Part shown: positions 14,399 to 64,000 of the stretch, piece after piece
How positions within the stretch are numbered: the first letter of the stretch is position 1
Layout of the letters: each line of letters starts with the position of its first letter
NCBI GenBank assembly: GCA_963702845.1
Contig: OY969763.1
Span: forward strand, 256,001-320,000
Source: an uncultured Verrucomicrobiae bacterium
GTDB taxonomy: Bacteria; Verrucomicrobiota; Verrucomicrobiia; Limisphaerales; Palsa-1400
DNA: 64,000 bases
Reading direction: 5' to 3'
Translations under genes and position numbers: made by a program
Notes under the pieces: generated by a model
Told to the model about the DNA's origin: nothing
Seen by the model: the letters and a program-made list of their open reading frames with translations, nothing else
The model's database searches: none

Positions 14399-17144
14399 TC
14401 ATTGGGTCTTTTTCATTGTCCAACCGCGGCGCACGAGAAGTGTCAACATTGCAGGCAAGAATGTCAGCCCGGCGATCATGCAAGTCGCAATGCCCACAGA
14501 CATGACGAATCCCAAACTTTGAATGCCTTGATGGCGCGCCAGGATCAGGCTGCCGAAACCGGTGATAGCGGTCAGGCCGGAAACGAGGACGGCTTTGCCG
14601 GTACTTTTCGCGAGAATGGCTGGGTTTTGTTCCTCGGCGAATCGGTTCAAAATATGGATGCCGTTGGTAACCCCGATTCCGACGACCAGGGGCAACGTCA
14701 TGATGTTCGCCGGATTGAAGGGGATGCCGGTGACGCCCATGAAACCCATCATCCAGATCGTTCCAATCGCAACCGGCAGTAACGCCAGAATGACGCAAAG
14801 GAACGAGCGGAAGTGAAGCAGCACCATGATCGCGATGGCGATGAGAGAGTAGAGCGCGGCTTGTTGGTAGCTGTTTTTTAGCAGCGTCGTGTAAACGAAC
14901 AACTGGGTTGGGGTGCCAGTCACTTTTTCTTCGGGCAATGAGGACAGTTCGTCCATTAGTTTTTTCTGGTTCCCATGTTCCCACAGGCTGTTCTCGGCTT
15001 TGGGAAATACCTGGATCTGCAATTTGCCGGTTTTGCCGATGAAACGGTTCTTCAAGGCGGGCGGCAAATCTTCGGCGCGCAATGGGGCGGCGATTTGATT
15101 GCGCAGATTGGAAAAGGTGTCGTGCAGGTCGTCGAAGAGCGCGTCCTGGTAATGGTAGAGGCGTTCGGGAACTTGGGGTTCACCGCTCAGCATCTTGCGA
15201 CGAAATACTGTGACGGAATCGTGCAATTCCTTCATTTGTTTGGCGATCTCGGGTTCGTTTGTGCGTGTCTCATCCACGATCAACCCGAGGTAACCATTCA
15301 GTGAAAAGAGCGTCACGCCGAGTTCCTGCAAATCGATGCTGTTGGTATCTTCCGGCGCGAATTTTACACTGGCCAATTCGTTGGTGATTTCGCGCACGAT
15401 TTTGACCTTTTTCGATTGATCGCCCGCGAGGAATTCGGTTGGAGAAATGGTATTGCTCGCCGAGATGATGCTGCCGGGTTTGGCGGCGAGTTCTTTGATC
15501 TTTTTCTCGAACTCCTGGGCTTCTTTCAGGTCGTCGGCCACAACCGCGGCGTAAAGCACTGACTGGCCGGCGGAATCGATGAGCTTCTGTTCGTAAACCA
15601 CTGACGGCAGGCCTTTGCTCTGCATGTTGAGCAGGTTGTAATCGAAAAATACTTTGGGGAGCACGAGTGCGCACAACAGGCAGATGCCGACGGTGATGCC
15701 GGTGACGATGAGTGGTCGTTGCAGCCACATGTTTTCGATTTGGACGCGCTTTTCGACCTGCGGCCCAAGTTGATGATCGATTTCGTTTTGCCGACCGCGC
15801 ATGAGCAGGACGGGCAACATCGTCATCATTGGGATGAGACAGAGCACGAGGCCGCCGCCGGAAATGAGGCCCATTTCCTGAATGCCTTTGAACTTGGTGA
15901 AGCCCATCGCGAGAAACGCGGCGGCAGTCGTCAATGCACCGGTGACGATGCCCTGGCCGGTGAAGACCATTGCTTTTTCCACACCTTCGGCTTCGGTGCG
16001 ACCCCGGCGCATTTCTTCTTCGTAACGCGTGATGAAGTGGACACCAAAATCGATTGCCAGACCGATCAGCATTGGCGCGAAGGTGATTGTAAGAACGTTG
16101 AGATGTCCGATCGCGGCAGTGGTGAAGCCCATCGTGTAACCGAGTCCGATGACAAGGCATAGCACGGCTTTGAGGGGGCGGCCGGTTTGTTGATAGGCGT
16201 AGATGAAAATCAGTGAGCAAATGACGAGAGATGCAATACTGGCAACGGTCGAGTCGTGCTCGGACTGGTGCATTTCGTCGTACTCGAGGACCGGGCCGCC
16301 GGTCAGGCCGATGTTCACGCCGGCCACTTCGTGTTGTGTTTCGGCAATGAGCTGCCCGCATTTTCTCGACGGCCGGCCCGTTCACTTCTTCATTACGCGG
16401 GCGGGCGGTGAGCAGATAAATGCGGCCGTTGTTGAACGTGATATAGATCTGTTTTTCCGCTTCTTCACCGGCGCCGAACAGGGCATTCACGCCGGGAGAG
16501 ACGGCCATGCCGGGGCGCTCGAGACTGGCGGTCCCCTGGTCGACGATTCGTTTCAGGGCCGGAATCGATTTCATCAAGGAATCGTTCTGCGCGTTGGTCT
16601 CGCGTTTGGCGGTGCGGATTTGTGTGTTAATCAGGCCGAAGAGTGAATCGAGGTTCGTCGCCTGGGTGAACTTCTCGATGAACGGCTGCATGTTGTGCAG
16701 CGTGTCGCGCAAGTCGACGAGGTTGGTTTCGTCGATGAACAGCAAGGCTTTTTTGCCGAGCATGTTCATGTCGCCCTTGTAGAAGACGTCTTCAAAGGTG
16801 TTGGTCAACGGGTCGAGTTTGGCCGCCAGGCGCTCGACGAACTGGCGGTTGCGCTCCATGTTCTCGCTTTCCACAACCACGACCAATTCATCCTGTTGCG
16901 GGAACTCCTGGCGGAACTTCAGATAAATATTGTGATAACGGTCTTTCTCGCCGACGAGGTTGTCGCGGTTCATGTCCATCTCGAGCCCGCGCAATCCGAA
17001 GGACTTGAATGCCCCTGCCGTGTAGAAAATGCAAAAAATGCAGAGCAGGATTTGCGGCCAGATGAACCACTTCGGATGACGCAAGAGCAGCCGCGTAACA
17101 AAACGCAGCGCATTTGCGAAAGCCGAAGAGAACGGTGATTGCAT
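14399..17144 (-). CDS. MMPL/RND family lipid transporter (HpnN-like), split by a +1 indel at ~16356
   Basis: Two MMPL halves; LIGLAIDFGVH and VVGIGVTNGIH TM4 motifs. Removing one G restores EKMRQLIAETQHEVAGVNIG, joining ORFs 15270-17144 and 14399-16327. Confidence 0.85.
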
Positions 17145-17265: not shown

Positions 17266-17308
17266 GTCGAGGGGTCGAAGGTCGAAAGTCGAGAGCCAAA
17301 AGGGAGCC
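17266..17308 (+). repeat. GTCGA heptamer-type dispersed repeat (copy 1)
   Basis: GTCGA x4 at 17266/17274/17281/17288, then GAGCCAAAA-GGGAGCC; inverted near-copy at 62903-62951. Confidence 0.7.
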
Positions 17309-17536
17309 GAGAACCAATTGGAAAAATTTTGCCAAAAATGCGCAACTTTTGCAGATAGCACTGCGAAGGTGCAAAGAGTATTTGAAACATGGAGCGGAGA
17401 AATTATGGGTGCGGGTTGTGGATTGTGGTTCTAACATCTTTTGGTTTTGGTTTAAAACGGTTTAAAAAAGTTCAATTACGAGGAATGTGTTCAGTTGATT
17501 TGTGGTTTTCATAAATATTTATTTATTTCGTTTTAG

Positions 17537-17582
17537 GCGTCAAAAAGCGTCAAATTGCGTCAAAAAGCGTCAAAAAGCGTCA
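17537..17582. repeat. 10-bp tandem repeat (GCGTCAAAAA) x4.6 overlapping the stop codon of the gp27-like gene
   Basis: gcgtcaaaaa gcgtcaaatt gcgtcaaaaa gcgtcaaaaa gcgtca. Confidence 0.9.
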
Positions 17583-18329
17583 TGAGGCGCAGTTTTGTGA
17601 CGGGTTGTCGCGGGTCCCGGGCGGAGACCATGAGTCGGGAATGTTGAAGGCGAGTCGGACGGCTTGTTCGCCGAGTGGTGTTGGGCCTGTGGGGTGATTG
17701 GCCGAGAATTTTTCGCGGATGAGTTCGATCTTTTGCTGACGTTGGCTTTCGAGAACCTGGGTGTTGATGAGGCGAGCGAGTTTGTAGAAGTGACCGGGTT
17801 TTTCGGTTAGGCCGTTGGTGATGAGGTTGGGATCGAAGTCGTGCATAGTTTGGGTGAGTTGAGCGGCGAGCATGAGGCGGTTGAATTCGACACAATCGTC
17901 CATGCCGTTGGTTTTGAATTTTTCGACGTGGTCTTTGACGTTGTCGATTTTGAGGCAGGCGGTTTCGACGCGTTCTTCTTTTCGAAGCCACTCGGCGTGG
18001 CCGCTTTTAACCCAACGGCGAATGTTGGAGGTGTTAAATCCGGGATGGCCTTTTTCGGCGAGTTGTTCGCAGATTTTGGAGTAAGGGACGTGGTCGGAAA
18101 GCGACTTGTTGACGAAGGTGCGGATTTCGAGGGGGAGTTCGGTGATTTTGCTGCGGTGAGGGCGATGGGCGCGTTTTGGTCGAACGGCGTTGATGTCGTC
18201 GAGCGCGGCAGGCTCGGAGGCCTGCGATACGGCAGGTTTAGAAACCTGCGATACGGGGAGTGCGGGGCTAGTTTCAATTGCGCCTTCGGTGCATAAGGCA
18301 GGAGGAATGTTTGTTGTTTCGTTATTCAT
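17580..18329 (-). CDS. Orphan phage Mu gp27/DUF3486-like helix-turn-helix protein
   Basis: RSKITELPLEIRTFVNKSLSDHVPYSKICEQLAEKGHPGFNTSNIRRW resembles the DUF3486 N-terminus (SKI..LP..IR..L...L.....Y..I...L...G..IS.S...R); helical/coiled C-terminus; no other phage genes nearby. Confidence 0.6.
   Translation of the reverse strand: MNNETTNIPPALCTEGAIETSPALPVSQVSKPAVSQASEPAALDDINAVRPKRAHRPHRSKITELPLEIRTFVNKSLSDHVPYSKICEQLAEKGHPGFNTSNIRRWVKSGHAEWLRKEERVETACLKIDNVKDHVEKFKTNGMDDCVEFNRLMLAAQLTQTMHDFDPNLITNGLTEKPGHFYKLARLINTQVLESQRQQKIELIREKFSANHPTGPTPLGEQAVRLAFNIPDSWSPPGTRDNPSQNCAS
18207..18254. repeat. Two tandem 24-bp REP-like palindromes inside the gp27-like CDS
   Basis: GGCAGGCTCGGAGGCCTGCGATAC followed by GGCAGGTTTAGAAACCTGCGATAC. 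Confidence 0.7.
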
Positions 18330-62040: not shown

Positions 62041-62157
62041 TGCTCTTGGTCCAAAACGACCGTGCTAAACGAAAATTGTAACACCCCCTCTCCGCGTTCT
62101 CGTCCGTCGTTGAAAGAGAAGATGCGCGAAAGCAGTCATCCGCGGCAAAGCAATAAC

Positions 62158-62859
62158 ATGCTGGAAACGACACCGCGCACTCACAGCACTCGTGCTTGCT
62201 TCGGTTTGTTAATGCGTCAGGAGCGTTGGGGATTTTCAGGGCGTGGACGACTGATTCTCGTGATTCTTTTCGTCGCCGGATTCATCGCAGCCGTTCTGCG
62301 CGTGCATCCGTTTTTAGCCGTCACTCAACGGACTGATACAGACATTCTGGTTGTGGAAGGTTGGATAAACCAGTTTACCACACGCACTGCGGCAAAGGAG
62401 TTCAACACCGGTTCGTACCATCGCCTGTTTACTACTGGCGGCCCGGTTAAGGGCAGTGGTGGTTACATCAATGATCAAGAAACCGTCGCCAGTGTGACCG
62501 CTGGTTTCTTGCGCCAGGCGGGAGTTCGCACGGATGCCGTGCAGATGGTGCCCTCTCACGTCATCGGTCGTGATCGTACTTACAGCTCCGCCGTGGCGTT
62601 GCGCGACTGGTTCCGTGATCATAATATGTCCGTGCGCAATTTTAACGTGCTGACCGAGGACGCGCACGCGCGACGAACCCGGATGCTGTTTCAGGAAGCG
62701 TTCGGCAAGGATGTCAAAGTGGGAATCATATCTGTGCCCAGCCCCGATTACGATGCGGCCCACTGGTGGCGTTATAGCGAGGGCGTCCGGGAGGTCCTCG
62801 ATGAGACGATCGCGTACATTTACGCAAAGTTTTTCTTTTGGCCTGAGACTCCTCACTAA
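62158..62859 (+). CDS. YdcF/ElyC/SanA (DUF218) family protein
   Basis: TM anchor; LVVEGW, TTGG, RT...A, T...HARR, W......EV..E. Start uncertain (62062-62212). Confidence 0.8.
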   Translation: MLETTPRTHSTRACFGLLMRQERWGFSGRGRLILVILFVAGFIAAVLRVHPFLAVTQRTDTDILVVEGWINQFTTRTAAKEFNTGSYHRLFTTGGPVKGSGGYINDQETVASVTAGFLRQAGVRTDAVQMVPSHVIGRDRTYSSAVALRDWFRDHNMSVRNFNVLTEDAHARRTRMLFQEAFGKDVKVGIISVPSPDYDAAHWWRYSEGVREVLDETIAYIYAKFFFWPETPH

Positions 62860-62902: not shown

Positions 62903-62988
62903 GGCTCCGTAGGTTTTTTTGGCCCTCGACCTTCGACAATCGACTCTCGACCGCTGTCCCTTTCGCATGTTTCGCGTATTTCGCGGTT
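62903..62988 (-). repeat. GTCGA heptamer repeat (copy 2, inverted) plus TTTCGC nonamer x3
   Basis: TCGAC at 62926/62933/62940/62947; TTTCGC at 62961/62970/62979. Confidence 0.7.
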
Positions 62989-63365
62989 AACACGTTTTGT
63001 TTTCCACCTTGAATTTGCCCATTCGAATTTTACTTGAAAATCTTTCCAGAAATTCGCATTCTTTCTCTGTCAATCAACTCTGCGGTGCAGGGTGGGGTTG
63101 ACCGGCCAACTCATTCCGGTGGAATGCCAGCGCCCCCGCCACTTCGGGCCTTTCTCGGTGAGAGAGGGTTTTAAGCGATGCGCCAGAGCGCGACGCTCAT
63201 ATACTCATATATCTCAAAGAATCCTAAGAATCCGTCAGCGAACTGTTGTCGTTCGCTGACATAACGTGCCGGCGTTTGTCCCGGTTGGAAAGGTCCGTAT
63301 TATGGAAATCCAGGAAATAAACTGCGCCGCTGGACGTTCCGGTCAGTGGCTAAAACTCCGCAAGT

Positions 63366-63890
63366 GGTCAAATTCGGTAAAGAAACGGTAAACTTTACCG
63401 GTCGTGAATCCGGCAGAGGTAAAACTTCGGTAAAGAAAAGGTAAACTTTTGCCGCCTTTCGTAAAATGAACGCGGTCCAAACGAAAAAACGTACAGAAAA
63501 TGTACAGAAAAGTTCAGTTTTCGATCCACGCCTGAAAAACCGTGAAAAAGGTAACCGGAGGTAATCAGAAGTAATCGGAGGTAATCTCATGATGCAATCT
63601 CACGGTCACGTTTGGTCATCTTTGGTCATCGGAGGTAATCTCATTATGCCGCAATTCGAAATCCGCAACGGGTATGAAACTGCACCGTTTCTGCATCATT
63701 TCTGCCTCGCTTTCCCTAATATTACCGGTTTCCAAAGTGCCAATACTCCGCCTTATGACCGCGTTCAAACCCGAAAAAATCTTTTCAATGACCTGAAATG
63801 ACTTTTAATGACCTTTAGCGACGTTTCACGGTCCGAAATCCGCAATCCTGTGCCGGCGGTAAAGTTCGGTAAAGAAACGGTAAACTTTTT
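63366..63890. repeat. Tract of multiple short motifs repeated at 10-11-bp pitch, including a 24-bp direct repeat x3
   Basis: TTCGGTAAAGAAA(C/A)GGTAAACTTT at 63373/63426/63865; GTAAYC x4; GGTCA x3; AATGAC x3; GTWCAG x3; CTGC x3. Confidence 0.85.
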
Positions 63891-64000
63891 ACCAGGTAGG
63901 GCGTGCTCTCCGAGCGCGCCGCGGTCAATTGTTTTGGAGTTTGAGATTTGGTGCTTCTCGGTTCGTGGCAGCGACCTCGCAACCAATTTGTTCATTTGTC
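63765..64000 (-). CDS. Possible 3' end of a gene entering from beyond the window edge
   Basis: The frame of ORF 63765-63995 is open to the edge. It reads through the REP (RGALGEHALP) and the phased repeats, as the gp27-like gene does. Confidence 0.3.
   Translation of the reverse strand, partial: QMNKLVARSLPRTEKHQISNSKTIDRGALGEHALPGKKFTVSLPNFTAGTGLRISDRETSLKVIKSHFRSLKRFFRV
63896..63921 (+). repeat. GTAG-type REP-like palindrome
   Basis: GTAG-GGCGTGCTC-TCC-GAGCGCGCC. Confidence 0.6.

Follow-up and report, generated by a model that had tools for sequence, protein, structure and literature searches.

What are the short, helically phased repeats at the end of this stretch of DNA, and to which gene do they belong? 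The window, that is, the whole stretch of 64,000 nucleotides that was analysed, corresponds to positions 256001-320000 of a single 6.03-Mb contig (source genome G000, contig C1), and the repeat tract lies in a gap of 1.26 kb between a DUF218 gene and a BBP2 beta-barrel gene. Named homologs suggest an origin in Verrucomicrobiota, order Limisphaerales. The original prediction described about seven motifs, most of them in three or four copies at a pitch of one helical turn, which formed either a protein-wrapping platform or an accumulated series of binding sites. Each motif coordinate that it gave was re-found exactly, and TGAAAAA was present in only two copies. The 24-bp unit started at 63373, 63426, and 63865. 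Between 63300 and 63900, the lag spectrum was single-peaked, at 10 and 11 bp, and the 67 4-mer matches at these two lags bore out the periodicity against the dinucleotide shuffles (6.9 ± 3.7, maximum 22), none of which attained 67 in 1000 trials. The AA/TT autocorrelation had its maxima at lags 10 and 11, and genome-wide 7 of the 1589 non-coding 600-bp windows scored 60 or more (median 5). Of 132 spacings measured inside the blocks of 13 sister stacks, 128 equalled 10 or 11 bp, so that the one-turn pitch held within blocks.

Exact non-coding triplets peaked at lag 10 across the genome (970), and 149 strong 10-11-bp loci were counted, 134 of which were not fully coding and are called phased loci below. 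A second, separate peak was found at lag 7 (734 non-coding exact triplets). The non-coding repeats of 7-bp period represent a second class, found for example at 17280-17310, 62920-62960, and 63935-63960 of the window, and such repeats were also seen inside two large-terminase genes (G000 2303617 and 2759348). At G000 4505443, 2302608, 5404200, and 3531307, single arrays had grown to 7-9 near-perfect 10-bp tandem units. The tract was neither a VNTR nor a CRISPR array, as had been predicted: the motif varied from block to block, and there was no constant repeat with spacers and no perfect tandem unit. The Rfam covariance models gave 0 matches at E≤1 against the tract and its leader, and the idea that the whole tract is a structured RNA was rejected with a fold z of only -1.2.

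The gene served by the arrays had been expected on the minus strand, entering from beyond position 64000. No such gene was found; the next gene is the beta-barrel gene on the plus strand, which together with the DUF218 gene belongs to a polysaccharide cluster. Seven short ORFs over the tract matched no Pfam family above the cut-off and no PHROG. Judging by related copies, the gene that goes with the arrays should precede them on the plus strand; in the tract it has been deleted. A search of the gap against the source genome yielded 35 loci and two components, the leader (about 63033-63316) and the arrays. Both are parts of a cassette with the order promoter-like site, folded leader, small helix-turn-helix (HTH) gene, and phased array; where the cassette is intact, a 136-aa gene comes after the leader and precedes a GGTAAAG array. 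The tract retained the promoter-like site and leader, the start codon plus five degenerate codons, the GGTAAAG array, and a 12-bp tail (Table 1). Both ends of the cassette were therefore kept, and the 410-bp gene between them was replaced by about 540 bp of arrays. Judged from these comparisons, the tract is almost certainly a derivative of the dispersed promoter-leader-HTH cassette.

Table 1. Features in and around the tract (window coordinates) and small-plus-large terminase pairs of the source genome (contig coordinates)
Feature	Position	Strand	Basis
Neighbouring DUF218 gene from the polysaccharide cluster; outside the cassette	62062..62859	+	Pfam PF02698
Putative promoter-like site (TTGAAA, 17 bp, CATTCT)	63034..63062	+	Five aligned copies
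Conserved multi-hairpin leader of the cassette	63068..63292	+	Fold and copies in genome
Remnant start of the deleted HTH gene	63302..63319	+	Position matches start of intact 136-aa gene
GGTAAAG array, copy 1	63366..63396	+	GGT(A/C)AA at 63366/76/87
GGTAAAG array, copy 2	63418..63449	+	GGT(A/C)AA at 63418/29/40
GTACAG array	63491..63517	+	GT(A/T)CAG at 63491/502/512
TGAAAAA pair, A-tract lead-in to next array	63533..63549	+	TGAAAAA at 63533/43
GGTAATC array, four units	63550..63586	+	GTAA(C/T)C at 63551/61/71/81
GGTCA(C/T) array and trailing GGTAATC unit	63604..63640	+	GGTCA at 63604/14/24; GTAA(C/T)C at 63635
CTGC(A/C)(C/T)C array	63680..63708	+	CTGC at 63680/91/702
AATGAC array after A/T tract	63787..63812	+	AATGAC at 63787/97/807
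GGTAAAG array, copy 3, native array of intact cassettes	63858..63888	+	GGT(A/C)AA at 63858/68/79
Native 3' tail of the cassette, 12-mer	63895..63906	+	Match behind intact cassette array
BBP2 beta-barrel gene, next gene downstream	start 64119	+	Followed by exosortase gene
Terminase pair 1	G000:C1 2183025-2185238		
Terminase pair 2	G000:C1 2594969-2597513		
Terminase pair 3	G000:C1 2758758-2761080		
Terminase pair 4	G000:C1 3497671-3500021		
Terminase pair 5	G000:C1 4753165-4755668		
Terminase pair 6	G000:C1 5838310-5840969		
Terminase pair 7	G000:C1 2302085-2305865		
Terminase pair 8	G000:C1 2814196-2816418		
Terminase pair 9	G000:C1 6002575-6004757		

The remnant start codes for M-E-I-Q-E-I, compared with M-K-D-Q-E-T in intact copies, and the intact 136-aa gene begins at the same point after the leader (G000 2551163). 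The 12-mer of the tail occurred twice in 6.03 Mb, in the tract and behind the array of an intact cassette (G000 2551629), and a one-letter variant of it was found behind the array of a second intact cassette. Two further copies in G000, at 3125 kb and 3333 kb, and one in another genome, G028, had likewise lost the gene and kept leader and arrays, and at G000 2105 kb the leader type of the tract was fused to a gene of the other subtype. A sister locus aligned with the tract over 579 bp at 83%. The pairwise alignments of eight cassette copies stopped at differing places and revealed no common terminus. With the query used, the empty-site comparison missed the DUF218 gene in three relatives and the beta-barrel gene in one; the same-genus G001 has the orthologous beta-barrel gene with a short upstream region and no arrays.

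The source genome has 18 copies of the leader, complete or partial, and 14 of these cluster at 3.12-3.26 Mb; within these 140 kb the copies were mostly truncated and lay amid large secreted-protein genes. Its fold was better than that of its shuffles (z -2.96), and among the 60 pairs in the alignment of seven close copies compensatory change was seen in only 3. A TTG-initial hexamer and its spacing were repeated upstream of the leader in five aligned copies, and the consensus scan gave no call at this promoter-like site because it scored 8/12. The 123-aa subtype (upstream of G000 812791, 1163814, 1556891, and 3333131) had a different leader, in which a promoter-like unit is repeated and every repeat precedes a TGCA(T/C)G array and a TTCGC array. 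As for the other motifs of the tract, the GTACA array was also found downstream of one foreign family member (L022), the GGTAATC array immediately 3' of the stop of a stand-alone large-terminase gene (G000 2814196), and the CTGC(A/C)(C/T)C array immediately 3' of the stop in the five 122-123-aa paralogs of the source genome. The exact GGTAATC triple was present in one of 301 genomes of the order, namely the source genome. The AATGAC array had one copy in the source genome, with kindred AATGAC/AATGGC arrays in the same-genus G002.

The HTH family has seven intact copies in the source genome, with arrays downstream of all of them. At least three phased triplets were located within 500 bp downstream of 7/7 intact HTH genes, compared with 3.4-3.9% of the long-gap genes, a result that is partly circular because the family was discovered via the arrays. 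Matches to the family occurred in 45 of 401 genomes of the order, with 2112 representatives at 50% identity. The predicted structure (pLDDT 85.5) showed a three-helix HTH without a wing at residues 4-40, followed by long helices. Fold searches with this model gave no match of Z≥8 or of E≤0.001, an absence that does not amount to a new fold; in the Foldseek search of the PDB, the Sf6 small terminase ranked first with a non-significant E of 1.0, and the PDB sequence search gave one match at E 0.15. Language-model neighbours of the protein included Terminase_5 clusters (0.94), which serves as a lead only, and prediction of a four-copy complex scored 0.19, below the mark of 0.42. When 96 members were scanned against PHROGs, 17 matched PHROG 4102 at E≤0.001 and 15 matched a regulator family. 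The HTH profile met the small-terminase family in the HTH only (54%). Taken alone, the HTH family is thus only weakly terminase-like.

Whether the motif follows the protein was examined at 100 of 124 loci, all from other genomes; the seven own copies, duplicates, loci with an unreadable helix, and those with <120 nt downstream were excluded. With motifs and helix classes both defined post hoc from these very data, a GGTAAA array followed 28 of 55 foreign genes with the xKP helix, a YTGCMYC array 6 of 8 with the RTLV helix, and a WAGACY array 7 of 14 with the xKQ helix. The 23 loci with other helices had three GGTAAA arrays and one WAGACY array, and shuffled controls gave 1/432. By the criterion used, 27 of the 55 xKP genes had no array, and one RTLV gene in a same-genus stack was also accompanied by GGTAAA. 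The distance from stop to array ranged from 8 to 315 bp, and the motif was kept nonetheless. In a quick tree, built with the helix masked, the helix classes formed clades, so the co-variation may reflect shared descent; together with the post hoc classes, this implies long conservation of the array with its gene and is not proof of recognition. Two of the seven tract motifs, therefore, putatively pair with relatives of this gene in other genomes, a different recognition-helix class going with each motif, in a pattern confounded by descent. A third (GTACA) is linked to a gene through the single locus L022, and no cognate gene was found for the remaining four. The xKQ clade sits on plasmid-like elements. 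Its members L126, L128, L131, L132, and L135, which are only distantly related to the HTH gene, directly precede replication-initiator-like genes of 590-650 aa, with a TAGACC array between the xKQ gene and the Rep-like gene; one Rep3_N match was obtained, and L126 also has ParA. This setting before Rep-like genes would fit a regulator equally well.

The tie to terminases came from the genes beside the arrays. A link of phased arrays to HTH and Mu-gp27-type genes had been anticipated, as had kinship with the locus at 17.3-18.4 kb of the window, and both were confirmed: such arrays adjoin such genes, and the gene at 17.3-18.4 kb belongs to a family matching the PHROG 426 small terminase and Pfam PF11985, the match being weak for this copy and above the cut-off for one paralog. 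This solo Mu-gp27-type small-terminase-like gene (17537-18329, minus strand, 249 aa) has a stop codon that is the first unit of a five-unit TGACGC array, and no large terminase follows it. Near that locus, a large membrane-protein gene (14399-17144, minus strand) seems to be interrupted by a frame change around 16330-16400, which may be a sequencing error or mark a pseudogene. In the cassettes of other genomes, a second gene was found after the array at 29/38 xKP, 12/17 other, 1/12 xKQ, and 0/11 RTLV loci. HHalign aligned it with the C-terminal half of a family of small terminases (97.3%, E 2e-11) that corresponds to PHROG 6299 (E 3e-23) and precedes large terminases in the source genome. The HTH gene was more often followed by a gene matching this C-terminal half than by a large terminase; within flanks of 1.5-3 kb, one locus had a large terminase, L044, with the order HTH gene, array, broken small-terminase-like gene, and large terminase.

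The source genome contains 14 Mu-gp27-type genes (the gene at 17.6-18.3 kb and 13 paralogs), nine genes of PHROG 6299 type, and large terminases, seven of one family and more of Mu type. Nine small-plus-large terminase pairs (Table 1) stand amid housekeeping genes without capsid or tail genes, mostly as open frames; one has a portal and one a split large subunit. One head-only capsid-portal module (L159, G000:C1 5239999-5249251) comprises a protease-like gene, capsid, connector, portal, and a two-piece large terminase, with no tail gene seen. Lone large-terminase 3' ends were noted at G000:C1 398728, 1543177, 3447099, 1717564, 2361402, and 2817002. Twenty-two of the 134 phased loci lay within 300 bp of the 38 terminase-type and HTH genes (null 2.8, maximum 9 of 300), an association that is partly circular because the seeds were found beside arrays. 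The non-circular test used Mu-gp27-type genes detected by homology in other genomes: 17 of 29 had a phased triplet at the start or stop, compared with 27 of 300 control windows. No terminase-type gene was located within 2 kb of 112 of the 134 phased loci, and five small terminases inside integrase-flanked islands had no array. In IMG/VR contigs, the HTH gene gave 41 candidate stretches, none of which was confirmed, and the pattern scan for the GGTAAAG triple gave 0. The tract itself has no small-terminase gene beside it; a pac-type setting is seen for sister arrays next to Mu-gp27-type genes and for the GGTAATC array that follows a large terminase. It is flanked by the DUF218 and beta-barrel genes, and no integrase was found within 2 kb of any phased locus. 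The tract is not filed as a pac site because it lies outside a phage or satellite; it is tied, with a putative function, to terminase-type genes.

The arrangement of the blocks bears on what the stack may do. Five of the tract motifs reappeared in differing orders in 15 multi-block stacks, and a single orientation was kept by all blocks (58) in 15/15 stacks, which are not independent events because many are copies of one another. The flanking genes took every orientation relative to the stack. An A5 or T5 tract was located within 30 bp of 118 of 212 blocks (background 19%), the linkers of the tract contained other dispersed short repeats, and similar stacks with partly different motifs were observed in G002. 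A common phase across blocks was rejected (Rayleigh R 0.15-0.32 over 30 non-independent intervals), and an apparent near-integer number of turns between blocks depended on the anchor and was gone on a fixed anchor. Blocks that are phased internally but not with one another speak for an accumulated series of sites, one of the two readings originally proposed, and against the other, a single wrapping platform. The absence of inter-block phase, the gene-replacement anatomy, and the motif-helix table of the HTH family are new. No description of such cassettes was found in the literature searched, outside subscription papers and supplements.

We favor, with a probability of roughly 0.45, the reading that the tract is a gene-less cassette copy whose stack provides docking sites for several small-terminase-like proteins and forms a pac-like chromosomal tag. 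The arrays are probably sites for these HTH/small-terminase proteins, and the odds that the stack acts as a packaging start today are slightly below even. HTH domains arranged head to tail at intervals of one helical turn would read each array, and every helix class would have a motif of its own. Recombination between cassettes, perhaps at cut ends, would have brought arrays from different paralogs together into co-oriented stacks. The bound protein would recruit one of the many large terminases of the source genome, and the stack, as a tag for terminases encoded elsewhere, would lead to packaging of the neighbouring chromosome in one direction, towards or away from the polysaccharide-export genes. 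In favour of it, the HTH motifs of small-terminase rings are about one DNA turn apart (PMC4737164), and known pac sites are repeats within or next to the small-terminase gene (PMC10028697, PMC6316719). Against this reading, the HTH of the SF6 small terminase shows no sequence specificity in binding its pac repeats (PMC4737164). Further points against it are that IMG/VR contigs yielded neither the HTH gene nor the GGTAAAG triple, that 112 phased loci have no terminase-type gene nearby, and that the small terminases of integrase-flanked islands have no array. A broader view, which we consider unlikely, is that soil Verrucomicrobiota run a dispersed multi-address packaging system in which every lone small-terminase-like reader has an array of its own, cutting and pumping fall to stand-alone large terminases, and the gene-less stacks are tags with several addresses. 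The stacks would then route chosen regions, here the polysaccharide-export cluster, into the capsids of resident head modules or passing phages, and would grow as cut ends recombine at one another.

Several other explanations were weighed. It is rather unlikely that the stack is a relic, i.e., that arrays which once served cassettes are now functionless debris of short-repeat recombination in a permissive intergenic region. Deletion of the gene in the tract and three other copies is what this account would expect, as are the shuffled block order without inter-block phase, the dispersed repeats in the linkers, the array-free upstream region in G001, and the simple tandem expansion of some arrays elsewhere; it sits poorly with motifs that stayed intact although the gene between them was lost, with an orientation constant in 15/15 stacks, and with the similar stacks of partly other motifs in G002 and two soil runs. 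Regulation seems a quite unlikely answer: HTH regulators would occupy the junction arrays, and the stack would tune read-through that starts at the cassette promoter and enters the beta-barrel and exosortase genes, or organise the nucleoid. Arrays are indeed common in the interval from the HTH stop to the start of the gene that follows, be it the second gene, a large terminase, or a Rep-like gene; regulator PHROGs match as often as terminase PHROGs, and self-repression would have a precedent in the SPP1 terminase, which reportedly represses its own synthesis. BldC and RdfS, moreover, bind DNA head-to-tail with one turn per protomer (PMC11963761). Operators would, however, leave unexplained both the second gene, which derives from a small terminase, and the arrays at 17/29 true small-terminase genes, and the stacks face their flanking genes in all orientations. 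That the stacks are decoys is improbable; as such, they would lower the yield of invading phages or satellites by sequestering their small terminases or by diverting these enzymes to host DNA. Many specificities are gathered and more than 100 loci are gene-less, but IMG/VR yielded no phage with the HTH gene or the GGTAAAG triple, and a few dozen sites make a small sink.

An origin from integrative elements, whose remains would be integrase arm-type sites, iterons, or parC centromeres, is disfavored as highly improbable. The arm sites of lambda have a 10-bp pitch. Arm sites are short repeats near att (PMC11963761), and the xKQ clade adjoins Rep-like and ParA genes; against arm sites, 0/134 phased loci were within 2 kb of the 10 integrase loci (defined by Pfam PF00589), 2/134 were within 500 bp of a tRNA, and IHF-like motifs were present at 5/134 against a background of 3.6%. 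The tract also lacks a Rep or Par gene, contains seven motifs, and has polysaccharide genes at its flanks, all of which argue against iterons and parC, and no iteron, parC, or integrase-arm context was found in the source genome. An assembly artefact has hardly any likelihood. The proposed inspection of raw reads was answered in part: none of the public runs examined spans the exact tract (X1 and X6 cover the flanking gene only), and two independent soil runs carry its blocks, joined in seven other ways. The blocks are diverged rather than identical, the sister locus aligns with them, and the same blocks occur in G002 as well as in the two soil runs, all of which speaks against misassembly.

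If the arrays are packaging addresses, more than 100 start sites for directional gene transfer would be present with no need of an adjacent prophage, and pseudo-pac and satellite-mediated transduction would be extended to a programmed form with multiple specificities. The pairs of helix class and motif offer a direct test of the long-open question of whether and how small terminases read sequence, a question to which they are pertinent because the SF6 domain studied does not read it. Should the stack be only debris, it would still account for a common unannotated repeat class of these genomes.

Compared with known systems, the tract resembles the pac region of P1 in its groups of three or four short repeats tied to a small-terminase gene; P1 pac has seven TGATCA/G hexamers inside pacA, and a bent nucleoprotein complex was proposed for it (PMC10028697). 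P1 pac differs in having one motif, a location inside a phage gene, Dam control, an IHF site, and a mapped cleavage, whereas the tract has seven motifs, is chromosomal and gene-less, and shows no IHF enrichment. With the SPP1/SF6 pac regions (PMC4737164, PMC6316719), it shares several sets of direct repeats by a promoter and a small-terminase gene and, as modelled, an HTH ring of one-turn spacing; there, the HTH is without sequence specificity and the locus is a single phage locus, while here the motifs follow helix classes and are dispersed in many copies. The Mu gp27-like family (PF11985, PHROG 426), which goes with Terminase_6N/6C, includes the gene at 17.6-18.3 kb and its 13 paralogs, many of them arrayed, and the terminase pairs of the source genome stand alone without a prophage; profile comparison gave no homology between this family and the HTH family of the tract (1%).

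The polymers of BldC, RdfS, and lambda Xis (PMC11963761) place one protomer per helical turn on direct repeats, as is modelled here, and consist of winged MerR-type domains of 60-90 aa, unlike the predicted wingless three-helix HTH with long helices of the present family. SaPI pseudo-pac sites and island-mediated transduction (PMC6687093) are alike in being chromosomal and directional, in using a non-phage small terminase, here a predicted one, and in their link to accessory genes. The SaPI sites are single homologs of one pac site, with no stacks and no dedicated promoter-leader cassette, and SaPIs carry an integrase and a replicase, both of which are absent from the present cassettes. By analogy, the tract is predicted to work like the P1 and SPP1 pac regions and the pseudo-pac sites of SaPIs.
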